A DNA stretch of 64,000 nt, taken from NCBI RefSeq assembly GCF_988242995.1, contig NZ_OZ547043.1; one strand, written 5' to 3'. Positions 9,097 to 63,220 of the stretch are shown here, one piece after another; positions within the stretch are counted from its first letter, which is position 1; each line of letters begins with the position of its first letter. Position numbers and translations under genes: made by a program. Below the pieces are notes generated by a model. It ran no database searches and was not told the origin of the DNA. It worked only from the letters and a program-made list of their open reading frames with translations.

Positions 9097-10704
9097 TTAT
9101 TCGATAGAGACGTTTTCGAAGTGATGTTTGCCTAATGGATCAACCACATAGCCTTTAACTTCTTTGCGTACCGGTTCAAACACGGTGGAGTGAGCGATGA
9201 TCAGTGCCGGAGCCTGATCGTGCATCACCACCTGTGCTTGTTTGTACAGTTCAACGCGCTTGTTGTGGTCGTCGGTGGCACGCGCCGGTTGAATCAGATC
9301 TTCAAACGGTTTGTAGCACCATTTTGAGTAGTTGGAGCCTTGTTCAGAGGCGGCGCAGCTGAACAGGGTGGCGAAGAAGTTATCCGGATCCCCGTTATCG
9401 CCAGTCCAGCCCATCATTACCGTCTGGTGCTCGCCATCTTTCGCACGCTTGAGGTACTCACCCCATTCGTAGGTGACAATTTTGGCCTGCACGCCGACTT
9501 TCGCCCAGTCTGCCTGAATCATCTCTGCCATGCGGCGAGCGTTCGGGTTATACGGACGTTGTACCGGCATTGCCCACAGGTCGATGGAGAAGCCTTTTTC
9601 CAGGCCCGCTTCTTTCAGCAAGGCTTTCGCTTTTTCGGGATCGTAGGTGTAGTCCTGAACGTCGTCGTTATAGCCCCACATGGTTGGCGGGATCAGGTTT
9701 TTCGCTGCCACGCCCGCGCCCTGATAAACCGCTTTGATGATAGCGTCTTTGTTCACCGCGTAGGTCAGAGCCTGGCGAACTTTCACGTCATCAAGTGGTT
9801 TTTTCTGCACGTTATATGAAAGATAGCCGACGTTAAGCCCCGGCATTTCCATCAGGTTGATGGATTTATCCTGCTTCATGCGAGCGATGTCTGCCGGGTT
9901 CGGGTACGGCATCACCTGGCATTCATTCTTCTGCAATTTCGCGTAACGCACGGAAGCATCAGGGGTAATAGAGAAGACCAGCGTATCGATCTGCGGTTTG
10001 GTGCCCCAGTAGCCATCAAACGCTTTGTAGCGGATACGGGAATCTTTTTGATACTGCTGTAACTGGAACGGACCGGTGCCGATTGGGTTGAGGTCCAGTT
10101 TTTCCGGCGTACCGGCTTTCATCATCGCGTCAGCATATTCTTTTGACAGAATAGAGGCGAAGTCCATTGCCAGATCCGCGAGGAACGGCGCTTCCGGGCG
10201 AGTCAGCACGAACTGAACGGTGTTATCGTCCACCTTTTTCACTTCGCTGATCAGCTCCGGCAAGCCCATGCCTTCGAAGTATTCGTAGCTGCCGCCAGAG
10301 ACTTTATGGTACGGGTTTTGCGCGTTTTTCTGACGATCGAACGAGAACACCACGTCATCGGCGTTCAGTTCGCGCGTCGGTTTGAATTCTTTGTTGTCGT
10401 GCCACTTCACACCTTTACGCAGATGGAAGGTATAGGTTTTTCCGTCTTCGCTGACTTCCCACTTTTCAGCGAGGCCCGGGATTACTTCGGTGGTGCCGAT
10501 TTTAAATTCAACCAGGCGGTTATAAAGCGGCACGGAAGAGGCGTCATAGGTGGTACCGGAGGTAAACAGCTGCGGGTTAAACCCTTCCGGAGATCCTTCT
10601 GAGCAATAAACCAGAGTTTTAGCCTGAACACTTGCTGCGACGGTCATAGCCACCAGGCTGAGACCAAGCTTCAGCATCCCTGACTTTTTCAAGGAAATAC
10701 GCAT
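9097..10704 (-). CDS. dppA: Periplasmic dipeptide-binding protein DppA (535 aa)
   Basis: 535-aa ORF with signal peptide MRISLKKSGMLKLGLSLVAMTVAASVQA; family 5 solute-binding protein; first gene of dpp operon. Confidence 0.95.
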   Translation of the reverse strand: MRISLKKSGMLKLGLSLVAMTVAASVQAKTLVYCSEGSPEGFNPQLFTSGTTYDASSVPLYNRLVEFKIGTTEVIPGLAEKWEVSEDGKTYTFHLRKGVKWHDNKEFKPTRELNADDVVFSFDRQKNAQNPYHKVSGGSYEYFEGMGLPELISEVKKVDDNTVQFVLTRPEAPFLADLAMDFASILSKEYADAMMKAGTPEKLDLNPIGTGPFQLQQYQKDSRIRYKAFDGYWGTKPQIDTLVFSITPDASVRYAKLQKNECQVMPYPNPADIARMKQDKSINLMEMPGLNVGYLSYNVQKKPLDDVKVRQALTYAVNKDAIIKAVYQGAGVAAKNLIPPTMWGYNDDVQDYTYDPEKAKALLKEAGLEKGFSIDLWAMPVQRPYNPNARRMAEMIQADWAKVGVQAKIVTYEWGEYLKRAKDGEHQTVMMGWTGDNGDPDNFFATLFSCAASEQGSNYSKWCYKPFEDLIQPARATDDHNKRVELYKQAQVVMHDQAPALIIAHSTVFEPVRKEVKGYVVDPLGKHHFENVSIE

Positions 10705-45853: not shown

Positions 45854-46324
<471 letters not shown>

Positions 46325-46441
46325 TCGAATAATCGTCTACGCCAGAACGCCTGGGTAATGTTATTGCTCTAACTATATTAATAATTCAGGTTGCTGCACA
46401 TGCAACTTGAATTATGACAAACATAGCCTCAAGGAATAGCT

Positions 46442-46915
46442 ATGAAAAAAATACTTGAAGCAATACTGGCGATTAATCTCGCCGTACTTTCCTGTATTGT
46501 GTTTATAAACATTATTTTAAGATATGGTTTTCAGACAAGCATTTTATCTGTAGATGAATTGTCACGTTATTTATTTGTCTGGTTAACATTTATTGGCGCG
46601 ATTGTGGCTTTTATGGATAACGCCCACGTTCAGGTCACCTTTCTGGTGGAGAAACTCTCCCCCGCATGGCAGCGACGAGTCGCTCTGGTTACCCATTCCT
46701 TAATCTTATTTATTTGTGGCGCACTGGCCTGGGGCGCAACGCTAAAAACAATTCAGGACTGGAGCGATTATTCACCGATCCTCGGTTTGCCCATCGGCCT
46801 GATGTATGCCGCTTGTCTGCCCACCAGCCTCGTTATCGCATTCTTTGAACTGCGTCATTTATATCAACTCATCACGCGTAGCAATTCTCTAACGTCGCCA
46901 CCGCAAGGAGCTTAA
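46442..46915 (+). CDS. yiaM: TRAP transporter small permease YiaM
   Basis: 157-aa 4-TM ORF (DctQ-like). Confidence 0.9.
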
Positions 46916-46917
46916 TC

Positions 46918-48195
46918 ATGGCTGTGCTGATTTTTCTGGGCTGTCTGTTGGGTGGTATTGCTATCGGTTTGCCTATTGCCTGGGCACTGTTGTTGTGCGG
47001 AGCGGCGTTAATGTTCTGGCTGGACATGTTTGATGTCCAGATCATGGCACAAACGCTGGTGAACGGAGCCGACAGCTTCTCCCTGCTGGCGATTCCGTTC
47101 TTTGTGCTGGCGGGTGAAATCATGAATGCGGGCGGCTTGTCGAAACGCATTGTTGACCTGCCGATGAAACTGGTGGGGCATAAGCCTGGTGGGCTTGGCT
47201 ACGTCGGCGTGCTGGCGGCAATGATTATGGCGAGCCTTTCCGGTTCTGCCGTTGCAGATACCGCCGCCGTTGCCGCACTACTGGTGCCGATGATGCGCAG
47301 CGCCGACTACCCGGTCAACCGGGCGGCGGGGCTGATTGCCTCTGGCGGCATTATCGCGCCAATTATTCCCCCTTCCATTCCGTTTATTATTTTCGGCGTT
47401 TCCAGCGGATTATCCATCAGTAAGCTGTTTATGGCGGGCATTGCCCCTGGCATGATGATGGGCGCAACGCTGATGCTTACCTGGTGGTGGCAGGCCAGTC
47501 GCCTTAATTTACCCCGCCAGCAAAAAGCAACGATGCAGGAAATCTGGCACTCTTTTGTCTCCGGTATCTGGGCGCTGTTTCTTCCAGTCATCATTATTGG
47601 CGGGTTTCGCTCCGGTCTGTTTACCCCTACCGAAGCCGGGGCCGTTGCTGCTTTCTATGCGCTGTTTGTCGCCACAGTTATTTACCGTGAAATGACCTTC
47701 GCCACACTTTGGCATGTGCTCATTGGCGCAGCGAAAACGACCTCAGTGGTGATGTTTCTGGTGGCCTCGGCACAAGTTTCCGCCTGGCTGATCACCATTG
47801 CTGAACTGCCGATGATGGTTTCTGATTTACTGCAACCGCTGGTCGATTCACCGCGTCTGCTGTTTATCGTCATTATGGTGGCTATCCTGATTGTCGGCAT
47901 GGTCATGGATTTAACGCCGACGGTATTAATTCTTACCCCGGTATTAATGCCTTTAGTTAAAGAGGCAGGAATCGATCCGATTTATTTCGGTGTCATGTTT
48001 ATCATTAACTGCTCAATCGGCTTAATTACACCGCCTATCGGTAATGTGCTTAACGTTATTTCAGGGGTGGCAAAACTCAAATTCGATGATGCAGTCAGAG
48101 GCGTTTTCCCTTACGTCCTGGTTTTATATTCATTATTAGTCGTATTTGTTTTTATTCCCGATCTCATCATCCTCCCTTTGAAATGGATTAATTAA
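46918..48195 (+). CDS. yiaN: TRAP transporter large permease YiaN
   Basis: 425-aa polytopic DctM-like ORF. Confidence 0.9.
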   Translation: MAVLIFLGCLLGGIAIGLPIAWALLLCGAALMFWLDMFDVQIMAQTLVNGADSFSLLAIPFFVLAGEIMNAGGLSKRIVDLPMKLVGHKPGGLGYVGVLAAMIMASLSGSAVADTAAVAALLVPMMRSADYPVNRAAGLIASGGIIAPIIPPSIPFIIFGVSSGLSISKLFMAGIAPGMMMGATLMLTWWWQASRLNLPRQQKATMQEIWHSFVSGIWALFLPVIIIGGFRSGLFTPTEAGAVAAFYALFVATVIYREMTFATLWHVLIGAAKTTSVVMFLVASAQVSAWLITIAELPMMVSDLLQPLVDSPRLLFIVIMVAILIVGMVMDLTPTVLILTPVLMPLVKEAGIDPIYFGVMFIINCSIGLITPPIGNVLNVISGVAKLKFDDAVRGVFPYVLVLYSLLVVFVFIPDLIILPLKWIN

Positions 48196-48207
48196 AAGGA
48201 AAATATT

Positions 48208-49194
48208 ATGAAATTACGTTCTGTAACCTACGCTTTATTAATTTCCGGAGTGGCTGCGTTCAGCACATCTTCTCTGGCGGCACAATCATTACGTTTCGGT
48301 TATGAAACCTCACAAACCGACTCGCAACATATTGCGGCAAAGAAATTCAATGAATTATTACAGGAAAAAACCAAAGGCGAACTGAAATTAAAATTGTTTC
48401 CGGATAGCACTCTCGGTAATGCGCAGGCGATGATCAGCGGCGTACGTGGCGGCACCATCGATATGGAAATGTCCGGCTCGAATAACTTTGCCGGGTTATC
48501 ACCAGTGATGAACTTGCTTGATGTCCCTTTCCTGTTCCGCGATACCGCTCACGCGCATAAAACGCTCGACGGCAAAGTCGGTGATGATCTGAAAGCCTCA
48601 CTTGAAGGTAAAGGACTAAAAGTACTGGCCTACTGGGAAAACGGCTGGCGCGATGTCACCAACTCGCGCGCACCGGTTAAAACCCCCGCCGACCTGAAAG
48701 GGCTGAAAATTCGCACCAACAATAGCCCGATGAATATCGCCGCATTCAAAGTCTTTGGCGCTAACCCGATCCCGATGCCGTTTGCCGAAGTCTATACCGG
48801 GCTGGAAACGCGCACTATCGACGCACAGGAACACCCGATCAACGTCGTCTGGTCAGCAAAATTTTTCGAAGTACAGAAGTACCTTTCTCTGACGCACCAC
48901 GCCTATTCGCCACTTCTGGTGGTGATCAACAAAGCGAAGTTTGACGGCTTAACCCCGGAGTTCCAGCAGGCGCTGATCTCATCTGCGCAGGAAGCGGGTA
49001 ACTACCAGCGCAAACTGGTTGCCGAAGATCAGCAAAAAATCATCGACGGCATGAAAGAAGCGGGCGTGGAAGTCATCACCGATCTCGACCGCAAAGCCTT
49101 TAGCGACGCACTGGGGAATCAGGTTCGCGACATGTTTGTTAAAGATGTTCCGCAGGGTGCTGATCTGCTGAAAGCCGTGGATGAGGTGCAATAA
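48208..49194 (+). CDS. yiaO: TRAP transporter periplasmic solute-binding protein YiaO
   Basis: 328-aa ORF with signal peptide, DctP-like. Confidence 0.9.
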   Translation: MKLRSVTYALLISGVAAFSTSSLAAQSLRFGYETSQTDSQHIAAKKFNELLQEKTKGELKLKLFPDSTLGNAQAMISGVRGGTIDMEMSGSNNFAGLSPVMNLLDVPFLFRDTAHAHKTLDGKVGDDLKASLEGKGLKVLAYWENGWRDVTNSRAPVKTPADLKGLKIRTNNSPMNIAAFKVFGANPIPMPFAEVYTGLETRTIDAQEHPINVVWSAKFFEVQKYLSLTHHAYSPLLVVINKAKFDGLTPEFQQALISSAQEAGNYQRKLVAEDQQKIIDGMKEAGVEVITDLDRKAFSDALGNQVRDMFVKDVPQGADLLKAVDEVQ

Positions 49195-51353: not shown

Positions 51354-52206
51354 TCATCCGTTAGGGATTTATGAAAAAGCGCTGGCGAAAGATCTCTCCT
51401 GGCCGGAGCGGCTGGTGCTGGCAAAAAGCTGCGGCTTTGATTTTGTCGAAATGTCGGTGGATGAAACTGACGAGCGTCTGTCACGCCTTGACTGGAGCGC
51501 CGCACAACGTGCTTTGCTGGTCACTGCGATGATCCAAACGGGTGTTGCCATTCCGTCGATGTGCCTGTCCGCACATCGTCGCTTTCCTTTTGGTAGCCGT
51601 GACGACGCGGTACGCCAGAGAGCACGGGAGATCATGAGTAAAGCGATTCGCCTGGCGCGCGATCTCGGCATTCGTACTATTCAACTGGCAGGTTACGACG
51701 TCTATTACGAAGACCACGACGAAGGCACCCAGCAACGTTTTGCTGAAGGGCTGGCGTGGGCGGTCGAACAGGCGGCGGCATCACAAGTCATGCTGGCAGT
51801 GGAGATTATGGATACCGCGTTTATGAACTCCATCAGCAAATGGAAAAAATGGGACGAGATGCTCGCCTCGCCGTGGTTCACCGTCTACCCGGACGTCGGC
51901 AACCTCAGCGCCTGGGGCAATGATGTTCCCGCCGAACTGAAACTGGGCATTGATCGTATCGCCGCGATCCACCTGAAAGACACCCAGCCAGTCACCGAGC
52001 AAAGCCCCGGACAGTTCCGCGACGTGCCGTTTGGCGAAGGCTGCGTCGATTTCGTTGGCATCTTCAAAACGCTGCATGAACTGAACTATCGCGGTTCTTT
52101 CCTGATTGAGATGTGGACCGAAAAAGCCAAAGAGCCGGTGCTGGAGATTATTCAGGCGCGGCGCTGGATTGAAGCGCGTATGCAGGAGGCTGGATTTATA
52201 TGTTAG
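51346..52206 (+). CDS. sgbU: L-ribulose-5-phosphate 3-epimerase SgbU (286 aa)
   Basis: Xylose-isomerase-like TIM barrel; start placed at GTG 51346 ([18 protein letters not shown]...) overlapping sgbH stop by 8 bp; ORF-track ATG at 51256 would overlap sgbH by 98 bp. Confidence 0.85.
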
Positions 52207-52895
52207 AGCAACTGAAAGCCGACGTGCTGGCGGCAAATCTGGCACTTCCCGCTCACCATCTGGTGACGTTCACCTGGGGCAATGTCAGCGCGGTAGACGA
52301 AACGCGGCAATGGATGGTAATCAAACCTTCCGGCGTCGAGTACGACGTGATGACCGCCGACGATATGGTGGTGGTTGAGATAGCCACCGGTAAGGTGGTG
52401 GAAGGCAGAAAAAAACCCTCGTCCGACACGCCAACGCATCTGGCGCTCTACCGTCGCTATGCCGAAATCGGTGGCATTGTGCATACCCACTCGCGCCACG
52501 CGACCATCTGGTCACAGGCCGGGCTGGATCTCCCCGCCTGGGGCACCACGCACGCCGATTACTTCTATGGAGCCATCCCCTGCACGCGCCTGATGACCGC
52601 AGAAGAGATCAACGGCGAGTATGAATACCAGACTGGCGAAGTGATCATTGAAACCCTCGAAGAACGCGGCAGGAGTCCAGCGCAAATCCCGGCGGTTCTG
52701 GTACATTCTCACGGCCCGTTCGCCTGGGGAAAAAATGCCGCCGATGCAGTGCATAACGCCGTGGTGCTGGAAGAGTGCGCCTATATGGGCCTGTTCTCGC
52801 GCCAGCTTGCGCCGCAACTCCCTGCGATGCAAAACGAACTGTTGGATAAGCACTACCTGCGTAAGCATGGGGCCAATGCCTATTACGGGCAGTAA
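52200..52895 (+). CDS. sgbE: L-ribulose-5-phosphate 4-epimerase SgbE (231 aa)
   Basis: Class II aldolase/epimerase family (AraD-like); overlaps sgbU stop. Confidence 0.92.
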
Positions 52896-52926
52896 TCCCT
52901 CACGCCGGGGCTTCATCGCCCCGGCA

Positions 52927-53742
52927 CTACGAATTGATATGTTCCTTGCTGTAACGTCGCTTCCACGCAGCTGGCGTTAAACCGGTGTGTTTGCGAAAAA
53001 TCTGTCGGAAATAACCAACGTCATTAAACCCGCACAACGCCGCCACTTCCGTGAGCGATCGCGCTTCGCTAATTAACAGCTTTTCGGCTTCGCGCACTCG
53101 CTGGCGATGAATTGCTTCTGTTAACGTCAGATGAAACACCCGCCGATAGACACGCCCAAGATAATCGGCATTGCAGTACAGCTCGCGGGCTAAAAGCGCC
53201 GTGGAAAGCGGGCGATGATATTGCGTGCGGATCAGTTTCTGCGCTTTCCAGGCAAGCGTGGTACCTGCGGCATCGGCCTGTTCATCAAGACGCGCGTCAC
53301 GGGTGAGTTGCTGCAAAATCAGCAGCACAATAAACTCCAGCGCCGGAGTGCGTTGATGCTTTTCCTGTTCGCTTAAGAACTGGCGAAACAGGGCCACCAA
53401 CGCCTGCGGATCGGCAACCTTCGTTTGTTGCGGCACGCTAAGATGAGTGAGCCAGCGCGGGTCGCTATCCGGCGCTTTAACCTCAAAATGCAGCCAGTAA
53501 AATTTGAGATCGGCGGGAAAATCCTCTACCCCAACATGCTGTCGGTTCGGCCAGAGTAATAAACTCTCTCCCGCATCGACCAGAAATATCCGCTCTTCTT
53601 CCTGAATCGCTAATCGACCTTTTTCGACAAAGATAATTTCCCATGACTCCAGCCGCCTTGCCGGATGCCTCCCTACGCCACGGGAAATAAATAATCCACC
53701 ATTTTGCACTTTAATCGGTAACGTTATGGATAATTCGAGCAT
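52927..53742 (-). CDS. AraC/XylS-family transcriptional regulator (271 aa)
   Basis: N-terminal cupin-like ligand-binding region plus C-terminal double HTH (signature ...DVGYFRQIFRKHTGLTPAAWKRR); divergent from transporter gene. Confidence 0.85.
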   Translation of the reverse strand: MLELSITLPIKVQNGGLFISRGVGRHPARRLESWEIIFVEKGRLAIQEEERIFLVDAGESLLLWPNRQHVGVEDFPADLKFYWLHFEVKAPDSDPRWLTHLSVPQQTKVADPQALVALFRQFLSEQEKHQRTPALEFIVLLILQQLTRDARLDEQADAAGTTLAWKAQKLIRTQYHRPLSTALLARELYCNADYLGRVYRRVFHLTLTEAIHRQRVREAEKLLISEARSLTEVAALCGFNDVGYFRQIFRKHTGLTPAAWKRRYSKEHINS

Positions 53743-53967
53743 TGATATGTAATTTCCCGCTTATTCATTAATGATTAAACACATTACCTTTTGATTATGA
53801 ATCAAAAACATTAATTTCACCTGATCCAATTCACACTTTTAAATTCAGGTCGGAATCGTCACCTTTTTTTACTCTTTTCTCGCCTTGTTGATATTCCCGT
53901 TCACGGCAGAATTAATCATGTCATTGCAATAAAACTAAAAATTGCTCCCTATTCACGAGGAATATCT
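53743..53967. promoter_or_regulatory. Divergent promoter region between the AraC-family regulator gene and the GPH transporter–GH127 gene pair
   Basis: 225-bp AT-rich intergenic region with homopolymer tracts (ttttttt) and SD-like sequence (cacgaggaa) before the transporter ATG; individual sites not mapped. Confidence 0.4.
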
Positions 53968-55368
53968 ATGACCTCTACACCGATTACTGCCGCTGATATC
54001 GCTAAAGGTAAAATTGACGATGCGTTATCTGTACGGGAAAAAATAGGCTACGGCCTGGGTGACGCAGGCGGCACCGTAATAACTTGCCTGATCATGAACT
54101 TTCTCACCTTTTTCTACACCGACGTTTTTGGCTTAACTCCGGCGCTGGTCGGCACGCTGTTTATTGCACTGCGCGTGTTTGATGCCATCTCCGACCCGGT
54201 GATGGGCGTCATTGCCGACCGGACGCAAAGTCGCTGGGGGCGCTTTCGTCCGTGGCAGTTATGGATTGCCATTCCCATCGGCATTATCGGCATCCTGACG
54301 TTCACCGTGCCAGATGCCAGCATGGGAGTAAAAATCGCCTGGGCGTTCGGCACTTACCTGCTCCTTTCAGTCGGTTATACCGCCATCAACGTGCCGTACT
54401 GCGCGCTGATCAACACCATGACCACCCGCCACAATGAAGTGATCTCCTGCCAGTCCTGGCGATTCGTTCTCTGCGGCGTAGCGGGATTTCTGGTTTCGGT
54501 AGGCTTACCGTGGATGGTAGATCTCTTCGGTCAGGGTAATGCCGCGCGCGGCTATCAACTGGGCGTCGGCGTGCTGTGCGCCATCGCTGTGGTGATGTTC
54601 CTGTGCTGTTTCTTCTGGGTTCGTGAACGGGTGCCACTCTCCACAATGGGGAAATTTACCCTGCGCGAACATCTTGCCGGGCTGCGAAACAACGACCAAC
54701 TACTGCTGATGCTGGTCATGTCTTTCCTGCTGATTAACGTCTTTAACATTCGCGGCGGTGGGTATATGTACTTCATTACCTACGTCTTACAAGGCAGTAC
54801 GGGCTACACGTCGCTGTTCTTCACCATGGTCACCTTCGCCTCCATTATCGGCTCGGTGATTGTCAGCCCGTTAACGCGGCGTTTCGATACCGTCAAAATT
54901 TATTACTACACCAACCTGCTCCTCGCTGCGCTGGCGGTGTTGATGTGGTTCCTGCCCTCCGGCCCGGCTTATCAAACGCTGTGGCTGGCGGTGATCCTCG
55001 GTAATGGCGTGATTCTTGGCTTCACATTGCCACTGCACTTCTCATTGATGGCCTTTGCCGATGACTACGGCGAGTGGAAAACCCGCGTACGTTCTTCCGG
55101 CATGAACTTCGCCTTCAATCTGTTTTTCATCAAACTGGCCTGGGCCTCCAGCGCCGGGATCATCAGCCTGCTGTTTATTTTTGTCGCCTACCAGCCAGGC
55201 GTGGAAAACCAGACCACCAGTTCGCTTGGCGGGATCACGGCGATGGAAACATTACTGCCTGCGCTATTCCACCTGCTGCTGGCAGGGGCGATCCGCTTTT
55301 GCAAACTCAATAACCCTATGATGTCACGCATTGCTACCGACCTGCGTCAGCGTCATGTACAGCCTTAA
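53968..55368 (+). CDS. Glycoside-pentoside-hexuronide (GPH):cation symporter family transporter (MFS superfamily), 466 aa
   Basis: 12-TM ORF with N-terminal GPH-type sequence (...[25 protein letters not shown]...); stop 10 bp before GH127 start. Confidence 0.85.
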
Positions 55369-55378
55369 GGAGCACAAG

Positions 55379-57343
55379 ATGAACATTTCGGAAGTCGATC
55401 TGCATAAACTGACGGTCAGCGATCCGTTCCTCGGTCAGTACCAACAACTGGTCCGCGATGTGGTGATTCCTTATCAGTGGGACGCCTTGAACGATCGTAT
55501 CCCAGAAGCGGAACCCAGCCATGCGATTGAAAACTTTCGCATTGCCGCAGGACTGCAAGACGGTGAATTTTACGGGATGGTGTTTCAGGACAGCGACGTC
55601 GCCAAATGGCTGGAAGCGGTAGCCTGGTCGCTGTGCCAGAAGCCGGATGCCGAACTGGAAAAAACCGCTGACGAGGTAATCGAACTGGTCGCTTCCGCCC
55701 AGTGCGAAGATGGCTATCTCAATACTTACTTTACGGTAAAAGCGCCCGAAGAACGCTGGAGCAATCTGGCGGAGTGTCATGAACTTTACTGCGCCGGTCA
55801 TCTGATTGAAGCCGGAGTCGCCTTCTTCCAGGCCACGGGCAAGCGGCGCTTGCTGGAAGTGGTTTGCCGTCTGGCCGATCATATCGACAGCGTATTTGGT
55901 CCAGGTGAAAGTAAGTTACACGGTTATCCTGGTCACCCGGAAATTGAACTGGCGCTAATGCGCCTGTATGAAGTGACCGAAGAGCCGCGCTACCTGGCGC
56001 TGACGAACTATTTTGTCGAACAGCGTGGTGCGCAACCGCACTATTACGACCAGGAATATGAAAAGCGCGGGCAGACCTCGCACTGGCACACCTACGGCCC
56101 GGCGTGGATGGTGAAAGATAAAGCCTACAGCCAGGCGCATTTGCCCATCGCACAGCAACAAACCGCCATCGGACATGCAGTACGCTTTGTATATCTGATG
56201 ACTGGCGTCGCACATCTGGCGCGTTTAAGTCACGATGAAAGCAAGCGTCAGGATTGCCTGCGGCTGTGGAACAATATGGCCCAGCGTCAGTTATATATTA
56301 CCGGCGGCATTGGCTCACAAAGCAGCGGCGAAGCGTTCAGCAGCGATTACGATCTGCCGAATGACACGGTTTACGCCGAAAGCTGTGCTTCCATCGGCCT
56401 GATGATGTTCGCCCGGCGAATGCTGGAAATGGAAGGCGACAGTCAATATGCCGATGTGATGGAGCGCGCACTGTACAACACCGTGCTCGGCGGCATGGCG
56501 CTGGATGGCAAACATTTCTTCTATGTGAATCCGCTGGAAGTACATCCAAAATCGCTGAAATTCAACCATATCTACGATCACGTTAAGCCGATCCGCCAGC
56601 GTTGGTTTGGTTGCGCTTGTTGTCCGCCAAATATCGCCCGCGTGCTGACCTCGATTGGTCATTATCTCTACACGCCGCGTGAAGATGCGTTGTATATCAA
56701 CATCTACGCAGGAAACAGCATGGAAGTGCCGGTAGAAAATGGCACGTTGCGCCTGCGGGTTAGCGGGAACTATCCGTGGCAGGAACAGGTGACAATTGCG
56801 GTTGAATCGCCCCAGCCGGTGCGTCATACGCTGGCTTTACGTCTGCCGGACTGGTGCACACAGCCGCAGATCATATTGAATGGGGAAGAGGTCGGGCAGG
56901 ATATTCGTAAAGGGTATTTGCACATTACCCGCGAATGGCAGGAGGGCGACACACTGAATCTGACTTTGCCAATGCCGGTACGTCGCGTTTACGGTAACCC
57001 TCTGGTGCGTCACGTCGCCGGAAAAGTGGCGATTCAGCGCGGCCCGCTGGTGTATTGCCTGGAACAGGCCGACAACGGCGAGTCACTGCATAACCTGTGG
57101 CTGCCTACCGATGCGCCATTTACGACCTTTGACGGCAAGGGATTGTTCCGCCATAAGATCTTAATCCAGGCACCGGGTTACCGGTATGAACAGAGCAATC
57201 CAGAGCAGCAACCGCTGTGGCATTACGACAGCGCGCCAGCCAAACGCCAGCCGCAAACCCTGACCTTTATCCCGTGGTTTAGCTGGGCCAACCGGGGTGA
57301 AGGCGAAATGCGGATCTGGGTGAATGAGGAAACCAGCGCATGA
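55379..57343 (+). CDS. Glycoside hydrolase family 127 / DUF1680 protein (beta-L-arabinofuranosidase-like), 655 aa
   Basis: Start trimmed to ATG 55379 preceded by SD aaggag; contains the Cys-rich CACCPPN motif and conserved Glu/Cys positions typical of HypBA1-type enzymes; family assignment from recalled motifs, not from a search. Confidence 0.75.
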   Translation: MNISEVDLHKLTVSDPFLGQYQQLVRDVVIPYQWDALNDRIPEAEPSHAIENFRIAAGLQDGEFYGMVFQDSDVAKWLEAVAWSLCQKPDAELEKTADEVIELVASAQCEDGYLNTYFTVKAPEERWSNLAECHELYCAGHLIEAGVAFFQATGKRRLLEVVCRLADHIDSVFGPGESKLHGYPGHPEIELALMRLYEVTEEPRYLALTNYFVEQRGAQPHYYDQEYEKRGQTSHWHTYGPAWMVKDKAYSQAHLPIAQQQTAIGHAVRFVYLMTGVAHLARLSHDESKRQDCLRLWNNMAQRQLYITGGIGSQSSGEAFSSDYDLPNDTVYAESCASIGLMMFARRMLEMEGDSQYADVMERALYNTVLGGMALDGKHFFYVNPLEVHPKSLKFNHIYDHVKPIRQRWFGCACCPPNIARVLTSIGHYLYTPREDALYINIYAGNSMEVPVENGTLRLRVSGNYPWQEQVTIAVESPQPVRHTLALRLPDWCTQPQIILNGEEVGQDIRKGYLHITREWQEGDTLNLTLPMPVRRVYGNPLVRHVAGKVAIQRGPLVYCLEQADNGESLHNLWLPTDAPFTTFDGKGLFRHKILIQAPGYRYEQSNPEQQPLWHYDSAPAKRQPQTLTFIPWFSWANRGEGEMRIWVNEETSA

Positions 57344-57345
57344 TG

Positions 57346-57380
57346 CGACGCTTAACGCGTCTTATCAGTATCAACATATC
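57346..57380. repeat. REP-like palindromic element downstream of the GH127 gene
   Basis: gatgcgacgcttaacgcgtcttatcag resembles the E. coli REP consensus. Confidence 0.6.
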
Positions 57381-57414
57381 GGTGCGGTTGCCCGCCAACC
57401 ATCGAAACGCGAGA

Positions 57415-57825
57415 TTAAACGCCCGGCAATACACGCCGGGCAGCTTCCGCCAGAAACGCACTTCTGTTGGCATAGTCTGGGTTATTGCGCACGTAGGTAT
57501 CAATCTTGTTCAGTAATCTTTTTGGCATCGTAATATTGATACGTTCAGCCCGACCTTCGAACTGATTCATATTGATATCCACCAGCAACCATTGCCCGCC
57601 AATAAAGTCCTGCGCACGCTGGACCAGATGTGTTTCCACAGAGCCTGGAAGCGGCAACTCTTCATTCATCTCGCATAAGGTTTCGAAGTGCGCGACCAGT
57701 GCACTTCGCGCATCCTGGAAAGCGTAGTCCAGCGTATCACCAGCAAAATAACAGCCTGGAACATCAGGGAAAAAACCGCTGGCACTGCCGTCAGGATCAC
57801 TGTGGATATAGGCGGGATAAAACAT
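57415..57825 (-). CDS. hicB: HicB-family antitoxin (RNase-H-like N-domain plus C-terminal ribbon-helix-helix), 136 aa
   Basis: MFYPAYIHSDPDGSASGFFPDVPGCYFAGDT... N-terminus typical of HicB/UPF0150; C-terminal RHH-like segment (INITMPKRLLNKIDTYV); 14 bp downstream of hicA. Confidence 0.8.
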   Translation of the reverse strand: MFYPAYIHSDPDGSASGFFPDVPGCYFAGDTLDYAFQDARSALVAHFETLCEMNEELPLPGSVETHLVQRAQDFIGGQWLLVDINMNQFEGRAERINITMPKRLLNKIDTYVRNNPDYANRSAFLAEAARRVLPGV

Positions 57826-57841
57826 ATTGCCTCCTGAAATT

Positions 57842-58027
57842 TTAAAATGTTAAACCAGCCTGACGCCCAATTTGCGCCAGCGTACCGGGCTTAATATCTT
57901 TTTTAGGGTGCGGAACCGTCACCAGACCCGGATGAACAGGGTGGCGGAACTGATGATGACTGCCACGGGTTCGAATATGTTCCCAGCCATGCTGCTTCAG
58001 GATGGCGATCACGTCTGCACTTTTCAC
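57842..58027 (-). CDS. hicA: HicA-family mRNA-interferase toxin (61 aa)
   Basis: MKSADVIAILKQHGWEHIRTRGSHHQFRHPVHPGLVTVPHPKKDIKPGTLAQIGRQAGLTF; matches the YcfA/HicA pattern (GSHH..F.HP...G.VTVPHP.KD...GTL..I.KQAGL). Confidence 0.85.
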   Translation of the reverse strand: MKSADVIAILKQHGWEHIRTRGSHHQFRHPVHPGLVTVPHPKKDIKPGTLAQIGRQAGLTF

Positions 58028-58239
58028 ATCCCTGCCCTTCCATGATTATACACACGATACACACACAATTAGCGATAACAATCACGATAGCGCGATTTAT
58101 ATGGGCCGTCAGGGGGATAAAGTTGACTCGCTCGGAAGGAGAATAACGGTGTGCAGTAACTTGTTGAAAAGATGCGAGGAGACTCGTAATTAAGTTCAAT
58201 CAATATTCAGTCATTCAAGACGTAGACATTTGAATTGGT

Positions 58240-58285
58240 AAAACGCGTAAGCGTCGCATCAGGCAATGAATACCCAATGCGACCA
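58240..58285. repeat. REP-like palindromic element between hicA upstream region and aldB 3' end
   Basis: gcgtaagcgtcgcatcaggcaatgaatacccaatgcgacc contains REP-type inverted repeat. Confidence 0.5.
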
Positions 58286-58295
58286 GCTTCTTATA

Positions 58296-59834
58296 TCAGA
58301 ACAGCCCCAACGGTTTATCCGAATAGCTCACCAGCAGGCACTTGGTTTGCTGGTAATGCTCAAGCATCATCTTATGGGTTTCGCGTCCGATGCCCGACTG
58401 TTTGTAGCCGCCAAACGCCGCATGTGCCGGGTAAGCGTGATAACAGTTGGTCCACACGCGCCCAGCCTGAATGCCGCGCCCCATCTTATAGGCCAGATTA
58501 CCGTTGCGGCTCCAGACACCCGCGCCCAGGCCATATTGCGTGTCGTTCGCCAGCTCCAGCGCTTCTTCCATCGTTTTGAAGGTGGTCACCGCCAGCACCG
58601 GACCAAAAATTTCTTCCTGGAACACGCGCATATTATTCTGACCAAACAGAATCGTCGGTTCGAGGTAGTAGCCGTCTTTCAGTTCGCCTTCCAGCAGCTT
58701 GCGCCGCCCGCCGGTGAGCACATCAGCGCCTTCTTTTTTACCGATATCAATGTAATTGAGGATGGTTTCCAGTTGCCCGTGCGAAACCTGCGCCCCCATT
58801 TGCGTCACGCTGTCGAGTGGGTTACCGCTACGAATGCTTTCGACACGGCGGATGGCGCGTTCCATAAAGCGTTCGTAGATAGACTCCTGCACTAAAGCAC
58901 GGCTTGGACAGGTGCAAACTTCGCCCTGGTTAAAGGCAAACAGTGCAAAGCCTTCCAGCGCTTTATCGAAAAAGGCATCTTCTTCATCCATCACATCAGC
59001 AAAGAAGATATTTGGCGATTTGCCGCCCAGCTCCAGGGTTACCGGAATAATGTTTTGCGTAGCGTATTGCATAATTTGTTGGCCCACTTCCGTTGAGCCG
59101 GTAAACGCCACTTTAGCGATGCGTTTCGAGGTCGCCAGATATTCGCCAATTTCCCCACCTGCACCGTTGACCACGTTCACCACGCCTGGCGGCAGTAAAT
59201 CACCGACGATTTCCATTAGCAGCAGTACAGAAAGCGGGGTAAGACGTGCGGGTTTCAGCACCACACAGTTGCCCGCCGCCAGCGCGGGGGCCATTTTCCA
59301 GCTCGCCATCAGCAGCGGGAAGTTCCACGGAATAATCTGCCCCACCACGCCTAACGGTTCGTGGAAGTGATAAGCCACAGTTTCGCTATCCACTTCACTA
59401 ATACCGCCTTCCTGCGCCCGAATACACGAGGCGAAATAGCGGAAATGGTCAATCGCCAGCGGCACATCGGCAGCACTGGTTTCGCGAATGGGTTTGCCGT
59501 TATCCCAGGTTTCAGCGGTCGCTAACAGTTCGAGGTTCTGCTCCATCCGATCGGCAATCTTAAACAGAATCGCCGCGCGATCCTGCACCGAGGTATGCGC
59601 CCATTTATCTTTCACTTTGTGCGCAGCATCCAGCGCCAGATCGATATCTCGTTTGCCCGAAGACGCCACTTCGCACAGCAGCTGCCCGGTCACCGGCGTC
59701 AGGTTCTGGTAATACTCGCCGTCGGCAGGGGCTACCCATTCGCCGCCAATAAAGTTGTCGTAGCGGGCTTTTAACTTGAGGGGGAAACCATACTCGCCGG
59801 GCTTAATCTGTGCTGAAGGGGGATTATTGGTCAT
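58296..59834 (-). CDS. aldB: Aldehyde dehydrogenase B (AldB), 512 aa
   Basis: Start trimmed from 59924 to ATG (plus-strand cat 59832-59834; [17 protein letters not shown]...); ALDH motifs (catalytic Cys in GQNCTCPSR-like context). Confidence 0.93.
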
Positions 59835-59993
59835 GATCGTCTCCTTGCAGTGTGAGGTATAACAAGGGTAGACGTGACTGGCGAAATCTTCGCCAGTCGG
59901 TAACAGCTTTACGACGGCTATCACGAATTTACGGGCAAGGACTACAGAGATAACTAAAACTCTCTCAAAAATCGCAAATTTTGAGATAGTTTA

Positions 59994-60024
59994 AAAAATG
60001 GCTGACAATTAGCCAGCCATTGGG
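59994..60024 (-). terminator. Rho-independent terminator downstream of yiaY
   Basis: Hairpin ATGGCTGACAATTAGCCAGCCAT with T-run on minus strand (A-run on plus). Confidence 0.6.
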
Positions 60025-60034
60025 GGAATGATGA

Positions 60035-61186
60035 TTACATCGCAGCGCGATAAATTGCCACAATCTCTTCGTGAGTTGCCTGAATCGGGTTAGTAAACCC
60101 ACACGCATCTTTCAGGGCATTGGTGGCCAGTACCGCGAAATCCTCTTCTTTCACGTTCAGGTCACGCAGGCCTGCCGGGATATTCACTTTCTTCGCCAGT
60201 TCACGGATGGCATTGATGCACGCTTCTGCGCCTTCCGCGTCATTTTTGCCTGTCACGTTAACGCCCATGGCAGCAGCACAGTCACGCAGACGCGCAGCAG
60301 CGACTTTGCTGTTGAACACCTGAACGTGTGGCAGCAGAACGGCATTACATACACCATGTGGCAGGTTGTAGAAACCGCCCAGCTGGTGCGCCATCGCATG
60401 AACATAACCAAGAGATGCGTTGTTGAATGCCATGCCAGCGAGGAACTGGGCATAAGCCATTGCTTCACGCGCTTTAGCATTGCTGCCATCTTCAACGGCT
60501 AACGGCAGATTTTCGGCAATCATGGTCACCGCTTTCAGTGCGCAAGCGTCAGTGATCGGCGTTGCAGCAATTGAAACATACGCTTCAATAGCGTGTGTTA
60601 AGGCATCCATACCGGTTGCGGCGGTCAGTGACTTCGGCATACCGATCATCAGAGAGGAGTCATTGACAGAAAGCAGCGGGGTCACGTGCTTATCAACAAT
60701 CGCCATTTTGATGTGACGCGCTTCGTCAGTGATGATGCAGAAACGGGTCATTTCAGAGGCCGTACCCGCCGTGGTATTGATGGCGATCATCGGCAGCTGC
60801 GGTTTTGCAGAGCGGTCAACGCCTTCATAATCGCGAATATCGCCACCATTGGCCGCCACCAGCGCAATACCTTTTGCGCAGTCGTGTGGAGAACCACCGC
60901 CTAAGGAAATCACGCTATCGCAATTATTTTCTTTAAGTAATTTCAAACCTGCAGCGACGTTTTCCGTGGTGGGGTTAGGTTGGGTGCCATCATAAATAAC
61001 ACTAAAAATATTGCGTTCTTCCAGTGCTTTTTGCACATCACCCGCCATACCCAATTTCGTTAACATATTGTCAGTGACAATTAAGGTACGGGTAAATCCA
61101 TAATCTGCCATCATATTCATTGCATCATTCAATGAATCAGCACCAATAACATTCACGGAAGGAATAAAAAAGGTTGAAGCTGCCAT
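60035..61186 (-). CDS. yiaY: Iron-containing (group III) alcohol dehydrogenase YiaY, 383 aa
   Basis: Fe-ADH family ORF with NAD-binding GGGSPHD motif. Confidence 0.9.
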
Positions 61187-61283
61187 AACACACTCCTGAA
61201 AGTGTAAAAAAGGGCGGGCAGCTTACTGAGGATTTTCATTCAAAAATATGATCAGTATTATTGATTATCAAAATTAATCTAAT

Positions 61284-61322
61284 AAAAAGCACATTGTATT
61301 CATTAAACAATGTGCTTTTTTT
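61284..61322 (-). terminator. Rho-independent terminator downstream of selB (bidirectional hairpin)
   Basis: AGCACATTGT...ACAATGTGCT hairpin flanked by A-run and T-run. Confidence 0.7.
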
Positions 61323-61375
61323 AAATTCATAAGAATTTTGTATTAATTTATTTTAAAACTTAATTAATCATTTCC

Positions 61376-63220
61376 TTATTTTTCCGGAAATAATAATGCG
61401 TCGCGCAATAAATGATCATTTCCACGACGACGCGTAAAGCCAATGCGGTCAAAATATTCCAAAATCTGAATTGCCAGCTTTCGGCCTACACCTAAGCGAT
61501 CGCGGAAATCCGCCGCGCAGGTTGAACCACACTCCTGATCGAGATCGCGGATCATATTGGCAAACTCGACAATCCGATCGTTACGGTAATAACGATCTTT
61601 AACGATCGCGGTAATTATCCCCTGCTGCGCCGCCTGGCGTAGCGTCAGGCGCATTGCCTGCTCGTCGGTTCCCGTCTCTTTTGCCAGGTCACGCACCCAC
61701 CACGGTTCGTCACCAAACAGCGGCTCTGCTTTTTGCCAGACGACCTGCTGCTCTTCGCTGAAGCCCGCTTTATGATCCGGCAGATGCAGCCAACCGTGAT
61801 GACTGAGGATGTCGCCGCTTTCGCGCATCTTTTCAATCAGCAACAGTACCAGCGCTTCATCTTCCATTGGCAACGCCATACGTCGCAGACGTTCGCGCCC
61901 AGGACCAGGTTCATCGCGATGTTGCTCATGATAAGTCGCTAATGTGTCGAGAATTTTCCGCTGCCAGCGGGCGGCAACCGGCGCATTCAACAAGCTATAA
62001 CCAGCCTGAATATAGCCAGGCTGTTGCAGCAGTTCGCGCATCCCTTCGCCGTTGAGCTGCCGTGCCCAGGCGAAATCCGCAAGGTTAACCGCTCCGCGTT
62101 CCAGATGAACAGATAACGCATCGGCATCGCTCTGCGCCCGTGCAAGAGACGCCAGCCATTGCAGATATTCCGGCTTACGCTTACCGCGACGCGGCGGGTT
62201 AAGCATCACCACACGCGCCCCCGCCAGCGTGTTGCGGGCCGAGATATCGCGCAGCACCAGGCGATCGTTATCCGCCAGCCATAGCGGCGTGTCGAACACC
62301 AGCTCGGCAAGGTTATCTTCCAGCAGCGAAACGCGTCCCGTGACGTGGCTGGCGGCGTGGTGAATATGCAGCGGCTGCCACTGGGTCAGCGGTGTATGGG
62401 TTTGAAGCTCGACAATCACCCGTGTGAAAGGCTCCGGCGGCGCATCGGCAAGCAGCCAGTCACCACGGTGAATCTGCTCTTTTTCCGCATCACCCGCGAT
62501 GTTAAGCGCGATACGCTGACCGGCATGGGCAGTTTCTGTTGGCTGATTTTGCGCATGCAGCGCACGCACGCGCATCGGTTTATTTACACCAGTCAGCCAT
62601 AGTGAATCGCCTACCTTCACTTCCCCGCTTAACGCCGTACCGGTGACGACCAGCCCGGCACCTTTTACGGTAAATGCACGGTCGATCGCGAGGCGGAAAC
62701 TATGTTGGCTGGCGTGTTCACGTTCTGGTAACTGAAGCAAATGCTCGCGCAGGGCATCAATTCCCCGACCTTCGGTTGCTGCGGTGATAAACAGTTTTGC
62801 CTCAGCAAAACCGTATTCCCGCAGCACCTCCTTTACCTGGCGTTCAACCTCATCAACACGCGCTTCGTCCACGCGATCGGCTTTGGTCAGCGCCACTGTC
62901 AGCATCGGGTTACCGGTCAGCTGCAAAATCGCCAGATGCTCACGGGTCTGTGCCATCACGCCGTCATCGCACGCCACCACCAGCAGCGCATGATCGATAC
63001 CCCCGACGCCCGCCAGCATGTTGGAAAGAAACTTTTCATGACCGGGAACGTCGATAAAACCAGGCACGCGGCCATCCGGCTGCGGCCAGTAGGCATAACC
63101 GAGATCGATGGTCATGCCGCGCTTTTTTTCTTCCGGCAGACGGTCGGCATTTACGCCAGTAATCGCCTGCAATAAGGTTGTTTTGCCGTGGTCAACGTGT
63201 CCGGCAGTCGCAATAATCAT
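61376..63220 (-). CDS. selB: Selenocysteine-specific translation elongation factor SelB (614 aa)
   Basis: N-terminal GTPase ([10 protein letters not shown]) plus winged-helix C-terminal domains. Confidence 0.95.

Follow-up and report, generated by a model that had tools for sequence, protein, structure and literature searches.

The described region closest to the one considered here is that of Escherichia coli K-12, in which the annotation places yiaT-yiaU-yiaV-yiaW between sgbE and aldB. Full-text searching of the literature gave nothing specific on this interval in E. coli. Two of the gene products discussed below have relatives of solved structure. The GH127 beta-L-arabinofuranosidases of Geobacillus stearothermophilus (4QJY) and Bifidobacterium longum (HypBA1, 3WKW) have three domains and carry E-x-C and C-A-C-C-P-P-N motifs. 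Toxin-antitoxin pairs with a ribbon-helix-helix (RHH)-type HicB, in which the toxin gene comes first, include HicAB of Burkholderia pseudomallei (PDB 6G26/4C26) and HicA3B3 of Yersinia pestis (PDB 4P78). A preprint reports the loss of hicAB in phylogroup B2, with the locus not specified there.

The window analysed here, a stretch of 64,000 nucleotides from contig NZ_OZ547043.1, shares with K-12 the genes that flank the interval and their order. An earlier note made from the letters of the window alone had claimed this, and its placing of yiaT-yiaW at this position in K-12 also proved correct. The sgbE-aldB interval is exactly 52896-58295 (sgbE stop 52895, aldB stop 58296; ORF list and homologous loci) and contains genes for an AraC-family regulator, a GPH/MFS symporter and a GH127 beta-L-arabinofuranosidase-type enzyme, together with an intact hicA-hicB pair. 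We consider it highly probable that sgbE-aldB is an old resident, multi-module chromosomal region, and that lineages differ mainly by the modules they have deleted. These modules are designated A (araC-GPH-GH127), B (yiaT-yiaU-yiaV-yiaW) and C (hicB-hicA). The features of the interval and its flanks are as follows.

52200..52895, plus strand: sgbE, L-ribulose-5-phosphate 4-epimerase, left core flank (ORF; araD/sgbE annotation in homologous loci); the gene is annotated araD-like
52904..52925: G+C-rich hairpin, gccggggc-ttcatc-gccccggc, in the 31-bp gap between the convergent sgbE and araC-like genes (folding)
52927..53742, minus strand: AraC-family regulator, 271 aa (HTH_18 2e-19; AraC_binding 8e-9; annotated in RefSeq relatives)
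53031..57051: 4,021-bp segment deleted in the K-12 type, comprising most of araC, all of the MFS gene and most of the GH127 gene (K-12 locus L001 9135/9136 joins 53030/57052)
53743..53967: A+T-rich region separating the divergent regulator gene and transporter-GH127 operon (GC 0.324, i.e. 32%)
53968..55368, plus strand: GPH (glycoside-pentoside-hexuronide) family cation symporter, 466 aa (MFS_2 6e-73; TIGR00792 gph 331.7 bits, cut-off 231)
55379..57343, plus strand: GH127 glycosidase, 654 aa (PF07944 9e-112; PF20736 1.5e-23; PF20737 1.8e-25)
57340..57366, plus strand: canonical REP (exact match to GATGCGACGCT-N4-GCGTCTTATC; chance expectation 0.00)
57368..57389: window deletion junction, 22 bp of ambiguous origin (homology to locus L008 ends at 57332/57367 and resumes at 57390)
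57390..57418, plus strand: small ORF remnant, the last 9 codons and stop (RPPTIETRD*), convergent with hicB (comparison with full-length strains)
57415..57825, minus strand: hicB antitoxin, 136 aa, HicB fold and C-terminal ribbon-helix-helix region (PF15919 3e-35)
57420..57442, minus strand: terminator-like hairpin at the hicB 3' end, gcccggcaatacacgccgggcagc, followed by TTTAAT (9-pair stem, 7 GC; -19 kcal/mol)
57842..58027, minus strand: hicA toxin, 61 aa, GTG start (PF07927 2e-23, 82.7 bits, cut-off 27)
58028..58236: hicA upstream region, absent from all yiaTUVW-only strains (K-12-type deletion 57499-58235)
58237..58260, minus strand: REP-like element just downstream of aldB (2 mismatches to the REP pattern)
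58296..59834, minus strand: aldB, aldehyde dehydrogenase B, right core flank (ORF and annotation of homologous loci)

Haplotypes were counted with junction-specific queries in 5,426 complete E. coli genomes. Coverage of the interval reaches 80% or more in only 2,312 of them, and its exact arrangement occurs in 489, in keeping with the earlier description of the segment as strain-variable rather than universal. The six junction classes are:

K-12 type: 2,461 genomes (K-12 scar junction)
GH127 locus with yiaTUVW: 1,239 genomes (GH127-yiaT junction, less the full type)
GH127 locus only: 567 genomes (GH127-aldB junction)
window type: 489 genomes (GH127-hicB junction)
empty: 481 genomes (sgbE-aldB junction)
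full: 16 genomes (chimeric query)

With constant flanking core genes and a content that varies over these classes, the locus is a core-gene-bounded region of genome plasticity. The GH127-yiaT junction, which marks the GH127 locus and yiaTUVW together, occurs in 1,255 genomes. The junction counts are self-consistent (2,461 + 1,255 + 567 + 489 + 481 = 5,253 of 5,426), 505 genomes have an intact hicBA (489 + 16), and yiaTUVW in 3,727, near 2,461 + 1,255; another 173 genomes (3.2%) fall outside all six classes. The full order, araC-MFS-GH127-yiaTUVW-smORF-hicBA, was predicted from the scars described below, then sought with a chimeric query and recovered in the 16 genomes, and the annotation of strains EC42405 and E200086 confirms it. 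The interval is 4.2 kb long in K-12, 5.4 kb in the window and about 9.3 kb in the full form.

The earlier note was right that the content differs from K-12 (araC-MFS-GH127-hicBA against yiaT-W); the difference is not complete, however, as three scars remain in K-12. The K-12 interval retains 52896-53030, 57052-57241 (a 190-bp GH127 fragment) and about 57386-57498 (approximately 110 bp, the hicB 3' end; L001 12940-13041). The deletion scar 53030/57052 is common to the 2,461 genomes of the K-12 type, and all that remains of the regulator gene in K-12 is a 3' pseudogene stub, 52927-53030. The hicB 3' end was present in all yiaTUVW strains tested, at 78-96% identity, and the empty type has, between sgbE and aldB, 24 nt identical to the hicB-end hairpin (locus L093, 13973-13996). 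The window in turn has the tail of the small ORF, which when intact is a 104-aa small membrane-protein gene with 51-59% identity across genera. From 57390 through aldB the window is collinear with the full type at 96.9% identity; thus, no more than one deletion need be assumed for the origin of the window type. The 22-bp junction weakly resembles what follows the REP in other strains, and mapping of this breakpoint revealed neither a convincing direct repeat nor a long microhomology.

Both states thus derive from a larger common locus, given the co-occurrence of modules and the scars. The most complete form would read sgbE / module A / BIME / module B / 104-aa small ORF / module C / REP / aldB. 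The window (A and C) would have arisen by one deletion of approximately 3.8 kb, from the post-GH127 REP to 25 bp past the hicB stop, removing module B and the small ORF except for nine codons. K-12 (B only) would have lost 4,021 bp of module A and, separately, hicA with most of hicB, and other lineages would have been left with modules A and B, with module A by itself, or with none. We infer how many such events there were, and in which order, from the arrangements seen today. Instead of descending directly from the ancestor, the 16 full genomes may have been rebuilt by recombination, through crossover in the shared region of approximately 110 bp that consists of the small-ORF tail and the hicB 3' end; even so, the scars would still require a full ancestor.

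The same region can be followed outside E. coli. Synteny of sgbE-araC-MFS-GH127...aldB is seen in Citrobacter, Enterobacter, Salmonella diarizonae, Klebsiella indica, Yokenella, Lelliottia, Pseudocitrobacter and others, and the GH127-aldB gap of other Enterobacteriaceae genera contains these modules too, in a patchy distribution. Identity to the window across genera is 75-86% for HicB and 79-88% for GH127, and the modules diverge about as much as neighbouring genes. The outgroups Escherichia sp. E1V33 and E. whittamii do not bear on the ancestral state; they have, after GH127, unrelated genes (DUF3829, a TPR protein, an HSP90-like ATPase and fdhD) and are without the yiaK-sgbE operon. Defence-type genes, an HSDR_N nuclease and SoFic, lie nearby in neighbouring strains.

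Deletion is not the whole story in this family. Enterobacter, Lelliottia and Pseudocitrobacter carry hicBA ahead of yiaT, a permuted order that requires at least one rearrangement or re-insertion. A wider reading, which we regard as unlikely but worth some weight, would treat the GH127-aldB and aldB-yiaY gaps as a family-wide hotspot free of mobile elements, in which hicBA, the HSDR_N nuclease, SoFic and small operons are lost, regained and permuted, possibly through REP/BIME-associated or short-homology recombination. The low diversity of hicBA would then reflect selection-driven spread of haplotypes by homologous recombination. A scan of the other genera found almost no E. coli-type REPs at module boundaries, so REP involvement is not generalisable.

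It is improbable, in our judgement, that the window state is ancestral for E. coli and that other lineages gained yiaTUVW, alone or together with the small ORF, by insertion between the post-GH127 BIME and hicB. In favour of this, hicB directly follows GH127 in Yokenella, Pluralibacter, Lelliottia and Citrobacter sp. 18056; moreover, the permuted genera have yiaT after hicA, not before hicB, and the position of yiaT-W is thus not fixed in the family. However, the window keeps an in-frame nine-codon tail of a gene conserved in several genera, which means that at least the small ORF was once present and was then truncated. Citrobacter, which has the most similar non-Escherichia GH127 among the loci retrieved, is arranged as in E. 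coli (GH127-yiaTUVW-aldB), with GH127-yiaT-yiaU-smORF-aldB in C. amalonaticus. In addition, the E. coli genomes examined with an intact or partial small ORF all have yiaTUVW upstream of it.

The earlier note proposed a replacement by homologous recombination in the flanks. In its strict form, a single event in sgbE and aldB would have exchanged yiaT-W for an unrelated cassette, the two contents being alleles of one site. The conserved flanks and the lack of mobile-element marks agree with this, as does a mosaic of identities indicating that recombination is active here: the window flanks are 98-100% identical to those of strain MLI108K3, whose middle differs, while the window hicBA is 99% identical to that of strains with flanks only 88-97% identical. 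Even so, such a swap is very improbable, since the GH127 locus and yiaTUVW occur together in the 1,255 genomes noted above, all modules occur in 16, and decayed pieces of araC, GH127 and hicB persist in K-12 as a piece of the small ORF does in the window. What survives of the proposal is the spread of haplotypes, as homologous recombination in the highly mosaic flanks probably shifts them between backgrounds; recombination is likely the vehicle of spread and not the origin of the difference. The two contents, which the note had treated as alternatives, are instead independent modules.

The interval bears none of the marks of a genomic island or integrative mobile element (integrase or transposase, attachment site, direct repeats, atypical composition). 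As the earlier note had stated for the boundaries, no tRNA lies within 48-64 kb of the window, and in a profile search the five interval genes matched regulator, transporter, glycosidase and HicA/HicB families only, with no integrase or transposase family. Neither the interval nor hicBA matched any plasmid record of the E. coli genome set, and direct repeats were not seen in the junction alignments. A GC comparison, which that note had suggested, gave normal values (genes 0.50-0.55, interval 0.52, window 0.513). Its view that the difference is old rather than a recent mobile insertion is upheld by the conservation of synteny and modules across genera. Toxin-antitoxin pairs are commonly mobile, hicBA coding sequences differ by 0-1.7% of nucleotides among carriers against 3-8% in the flanks, which could mean recent spread, and the HSDR_N nuclease and SoFic genes are close by in neighbouring strains, but recent horizontal acquisition of the interval, or of its hicAB part, on a degraded mobile element or island is the least probable account of all, given this lack of mobile-element traits, the presence of hicBA in the same chromosomal gap in many genera, diverged like its neighbours, and the hicB scars in the yiaTUVW-bearing and empty genomes examined, from which it follows that hicBA predates the diversification of E. 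coli.

Under the preferred reading of an old region eroded by deletion, a larger ancestral locus would have undergone three independent deletions, each with its scar, which together look like a cassette swap; K-12 would be the more eroded at sgbE-aldB.

The hairpin that the earlier note saw just after sgbE has eight G-C-rich pairs (-19.9 kcal/mol, z = -4.65; none of 200 shuffles equally stable) and is kept in K-12, where the first 135 bp of the interval are conserved. The terminator scan passes over it because neither strand has the T-run of an intrinsic terminator; it may be a bidirectional transcript-end structure without a U-run. Unlike this hairpin, the one at the hicB end was called by the scan. 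The REP-like element on the aldB side was correctly noted earlier; it is inverted relative to the canonical REP at 57340-57366, which had been missed, and is homologous to the K-12 REP at L001 13133-13158. Both are intergenic, as expected of REP/BIME elements. Comparison with loci L008 (6572-6643) and L012 (11150-11221) identifies the canonical REP as the second of the two-REP post-GH127 BIME of full-length strains, of which the window is without the first; the number of post-GH127 REPs, one or two, varies between strains. Proximity alone suggests a role of REPs in the breakpoints. The REP rearrangement that follows the GH127 gene has made its terminal codons differ from those of the 656-aa form.

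Module A has the layout of a three-gene catabolic unit. A crude sigma-70 consensus scan of 52700-58500 found no promoter, so promoters in the interval are placed by inference; from the divergent gene layout, 53743-53967 would be a divergent control region. All three GH127 domains, catalytic, middle and C-terminal, are present, and the closest solved structures are beta-L-arabinofuranosidases (4QJY, 1e-235 over residues 11-650; HypBA1 3WKW, 1e-152). The YAESCASI (E-x-C) and GCACCPPN motifs align with the same motifs in 4QJY; published work on HypBA1 is reported to assign these motifs to the catalytic site, with its cysteine nucleophile, and to the Cys3-Glu zinc site. The best NCBIfam model was aceric acid hydrolase, at 453 bits and below its cut-off of 950. 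By homology, the enzyme is probably a cytoplasmic beta-L-arabinofuranosidase. The AraC-type regulator would activate the symporter gene, the symporter would take in a glycoside of the beta-L-arabinofuranoside type, a substrate suggested by family membership only, and GH127 would free L-arabinose in the cytoplasm. Unlike 4QJY and HypBA1, the E. coli enzyme is encoded in a minimal regulator-symporter-hydrolase locus adjoining the yiaK-S/sgb operon. Approximately 43% of E. coli have this locus intact, K-12 not among them, probably for the use of plant beta-L-arabinofuranosides, and it may bear on phenotypes in the gut or plant niche that differ between strains.

Module C has the sequence traits of a HicAB type II toxin-antitoxin system: a HicA domain, a HicB domain with a DNA-binding C-terminus, and two neighbouring genes in the same orientation, hicA preceding hicB on the minus strand (58027->57842; 57825->57415) with a 16-bp gap. 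HicA aligns end to end with B. pseudomallei HicA 4C26 (1e-16), and the His in its GSHHQF motif, presumably the catalytic residue, aligns to the Ala of that crystallised mutant. The protein is identical in five carriers compared and in all carriers examined, a conservation that gives indirect support to a putative toxicity of HicA and its neutralisation by HicB. HicB aligns over its full length (residues 2-133, RSAFLAEAA segment included) with the B. pseudomallei RHH-type HicB 6G1N (1e-24), whereas its match to K-12 HicB 6HPB is limited to the N-terminal 66 aa, placing the pair in another subfamily than the K-12 hicAB locus. None of the PADLOC and NCBIfam models matched HicA, HicB or the small ORF. 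On the pattern of the family, this intact operon would encode a HicA that cuts mRNA and a HicB that neutralises it and represses its own operon through the C-terminal RHH region; 58028-58236 presumably holds the hicA promoter and operator. Approximately 9% of E. coli thus have a second hicAB, of the Burkholderia/Yersinia type, which could matter for toxin-antitoxin inventories and niche phenotypes. In contrast to those comparison systems, this pair is chromosomal, at a site fixed across the family, and is known here from sequence.

Compared with the K-12 region, the window shares the order and orientation of the flanking genes, the post-sgbE hairpin and a REP before aldB. K-12 is without 4,021 bp of araC-MFS-GH127, hicA and most of hicB, whereas the window is without yiaTUVW and most of the small ORF. 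Overall, sgbE-aldB appears to be an ordinary plasticity region of an already known kind, no surprise to a specialist and a clean worked example. Like other core-bounded plasticity regions of E. coli with REP/BIME-rich boundaries, it combines variable content and boundary REPs with an absence of mobile-element hallmarks. Unlike plasticity regions built by foreign gain, its variation would consist mostly of nested deletions of old resident genes, with the scars as their record.

The segment at 52896-58295 runs exactly from the sgbE stop codon (52895) to the aldB stop codon (58296) and contains five intact genes:

52927-53742, minus strand, AraC-family regulator with HTH_18 and AraC_binding domains
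53968-55368, GPH-family MFS symporter, divergent from the AraC-family regulator
55379-57343, GH127 glycosidase
57825-57415, minus strand, hicB, downstream of hicA
58027-57842, minus strand, hicA; hicB starts 16 bp further on

In the annotated K-12 locus, the same two genes flank yiaT-yiaU-yiaV-yiaW, as the earlier note had stated. Its description of the boundaries was also borne out: there is no tRNA, none of the genes matches an integrase or transposase family, a hairpin follows sgbE (52904-52925; -19.9 kcal/mol, z = -4.65) and a REP-like element lies beside aldB (58237-58260). The hairpin has no T-run and was not called in a terminator scan. A canonical REP, inverted relative to the element beside aldB, follows GH127 at 57340-57366. 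The GC comparison that the note had proposed found an unremarkable composition (genes 0.50-0.55, segment 0.524, window 0.513). A sharp GC dip (0.338) at 61000-61500, upstream of yiaY and between yiaY and selB, is probably just a promoter region.

Exchange of one cassette for another, as the earlier note had proposed, was rejected, the window genes and the K-12 genes being separate modules in annotated relatives. In MLI108K3, EC26 and O157:H7, araC-MFS-GH127 is followed by yiaTUVW. What K-12 keeps of these genes is a stub of 104 bp from the 3' end of the araC-like gene and a 190-bp piece from within GH127; the two are joined exactly at window 53030/57052, a deletion of 4,021 bp. Similarly, in all yiaTUVW strains examined, the final ~80 bp of hicB and the flank downstream of it survive between yiaW and aldB (78-96% identity to window 57386-57498), and the window retains only the last 9 codons and stop (57390-57418) of a small ORF that other strains carry between yiaW and hicB. 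These scars predict an ancestor with all modules. A chimeric query, in which the EC26 sequence from yiaW to the small ORF was fused to the window hicBA, found the predicted arrangement in 16 genomes, annotated in the order sgbE, araC, MFS, GH127, yiaT, yiaU, yiaV, yiaW, small ORF, hicB, hicA, aldB. The window is collinear with this full form on either side of one gap (52000-57332, 96.1% identity; 57390-59000, 96.9%), and a single deletion of ~3.8 kb therefore suffices to produce the window type.

This deletion has its left breakpoint just past the post-GH127 REP and its right breakpoint within the small ORF. Junction alignments revealed no clear direct repeat, and 22 bp between the breakpoints are ambiguous in origin. 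Full-length strains carry a two-REP BIME after GH127, of which the second REP alone is left in the window; MRY15-131 and some other window-type strains retain both, which makes their junction ~55 bp longer. Involvement of REPs in the deletions is a mere possibility, suggested by their proximity.

A census by junction-specific megablast (coverage at least 80%) placed 5,253 of 5,426 complete E. coli genomes (96.8%) in the following classes.

Haplotypes of the sgbE-aldB gap in complete genomes
K-12 scar type (araC stub and GH127 fragment, then yiaT): 2,461
GH127 locus with yiaTUVW (GH127-yiaT junction): 1,255, including the 16 full ones
GH127 locus only (GH127-aldB junction): 567
Window type (GH127-hicB junction): 489
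Empty type (sgbE-aldB junction, 46-bp gap): 481

Separate counts were consistent with these classes, giving 505 genomes with intact hicBA (489 + 16), 3,727 with yiaTUVW (near 2,461 + 1,255) and 2,312 with the GH127 locus (near 1,255 + 567 + 489). The empty type is also scarred, its 46-bp gap containing a 24-nt exact copy of the hicB 3'-end hairpin.

Mosaicism is unusually strong across the entire yia region: in 500-bp bins, identity between the window and other E. coli runs from 69% to 100%. The closest flanks are those of MLI108K3 (98-100% on both sides, except 95.6% in the bin at 51500), the middle of which holds yiaTUVW and merely a scar of hicB. The window hicBA is 99% identical to that of MRY15-131 and of EC42405 and E200086, two annotated full-type genomes, and the flanks of these strains are 88-97% identical to the window; among carriers, nucleotide differences number 0-1 in hicA (186 nt) and 0-7 in hicB (411 nt). 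Since both scars are widely shared, they are old. From old scars and near-identical flanks around unlike middles, we infer that whole haplotypes were moved by homologous recombination. Thus, the earlier note's interpretation of an old, non-mobile segment stands, as does spread by recombination at this inferred strength; replacement does not, given the scars and the co-occurrence of modules.

Within the same region, window ~46000-48500 (yiaL-yiaN) shares no more than 69-84% identity with isolateI and isolate 127, far beyond normal within-species divergence, suggesting that the TRAP transporter region exists as an ancient, divergent allele. Isolate 127 has an additional DUF4862 gene between yiaL and yiaM. 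The yiaK-sgbE operon is wholly missing from O157:H7, Escherichia sp. E1V33 and E. whittamii; the araC-like gene adjoins a yiaJ remnant in O157:H7 (L003 6871-7011) and, in E1V33, is joined to sequence matching window ~43937 (L013 ~7538).

Across genera, the GH127 protein was searched against one genome per species, followed by tblastn with all module proteins. The synteny sgbE-araC-MFS-GH127 ... aldB is kept in many Enterobacteriaceae genera, and the GH127-aldB gap is variable everywhere, built of the same parts.

Content of the GH127-aldB gap in other genera
Nothing: Salmonella diarizonae, Klebsiella indica
yiaTU: Enterobacter, Leclercia
yiaTUVW: Citrobacter
hicBA only: Yokenella
Small ORF-hicBA: Enterobacter sp. 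kpr-6
Small ORF only: Citrobacter sedlakii, Kluyvera
Small ORF-hicBA-yiaTUVW: Pseudocitrobacter
HSDR_N-domain nuclease and hicBA: Trabulsiella, Enterobacter chuandaensis

HicB is 75-86% identical to that of the window, within the range of GH127 (79-88%) and, in most loci, above the araC-like gene (60-85%). Given the conserved synteny and this comparable identity, hicBA has long resided at the site and did not arrive recently. The order of hicBA and yiaT in Citrobacter and E. coli is unlike that in Enterobacter and Pseudocitrobacter, which indicates at least one rearrangement as well; deletion is thus not the whole history. One record, 'Chryseobacterium sp. 18061', has the araC-MFS-GH127 ... 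aldB layout (GH127 85%, AldB 93%) and looks mislabelled or contaminated, because layout and identities are the same as in Citrobacter sp. 18056.

The small ORF (104 aa; 10183-10497 in the full-length strain L008) is convergent with hicB, overlaps its stop codon and is 51-59% identical across genera. It has no family match in Pfam or NCBIfam and, from its hydrophobic stretches, apparently encodes a small membrane protein. K-12 has a 47-aa version with 57 codons deleted in-frame (L001 12830-12973). Other neighbouring genes also vary. MRY15-131 carries a hicA-aldB insertion (L012 12354-13433) encoding a 359-aa protein with HSDR_N/HSDR_N_2 type I restriction enzyme R N-terminal domains, homologues of which (73-81% identity) occupy the GH127-aldB gap of Trabulsiella, Enterobacter chuandaensis and other genera. 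A 431-aa Fic-family gene, matching the PADLOC SoFic defence model (1.2e-43), lies between aldB and yiaY in O157:H7 (L003 17056-18351), isolateI (L005 12280-13575) and MRY15-131 (L012 15120-16415); this gap is only 200 bp in the window (59835-60034). In E. whittamii, unlike E. coli, GH127 is followed (L014 12106-17515) by genes for a DUF3829 protein, a 768-aa TPR protein and a 611-aa HSP90-like/HATPase_c_3 protein, possibly a defence-like trio, and then fdhD.

The window GH127 is very similar to the Geobacillus beta-L-arabinofuranosidase of solved structure (4QJY; E = 1e-235) and to Bifidobacterium HypBA1, with both the E-S-C and the C-A-C-C-P-P-N motif conserved. In several Bradyrhizobium genomes, a GH127 gene without araC/MFS neighbours encodes a protein sharing 71-72% identity with its E. 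coli counterpart, surprisingly high for alpha- versus gamma-proteobacteria. Judging from these families, the AraC-type regulator would activate the divergent symporter-GH127 operon through the A+T-rich 225-bp control region, the symporter would import a glycoside, most likely a beta-L-arabinofuranoside, and GH127, presumably cytoplasmic because its N-terminus, by eye, is unlike a signal peptide, would release L-arabinose. HicA would be a small mRNA-cleaving toxin restrained by HicB, the C-terminal DNA-binding domain of which may also repress its own operon. The nearest pair is that of Burkholderia pseudomallei (4C26/6G26; E = 1e-16 for HicA and 1e-24 for HicB); HicA has a histidine where 4C26 carries an alanine mutation, and HicB aligns over its whole length with the ribbon-helix-helix type, whereas the match to K-12's own HicB is confined to the N-terminal 66 residues. 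A literature search found no paper specific to the sgbE-aldB interval. The gap is an ordinary region of genome plasticity bounded by core genes and made up of annotated gene families, with nothing in it outside known kinds.
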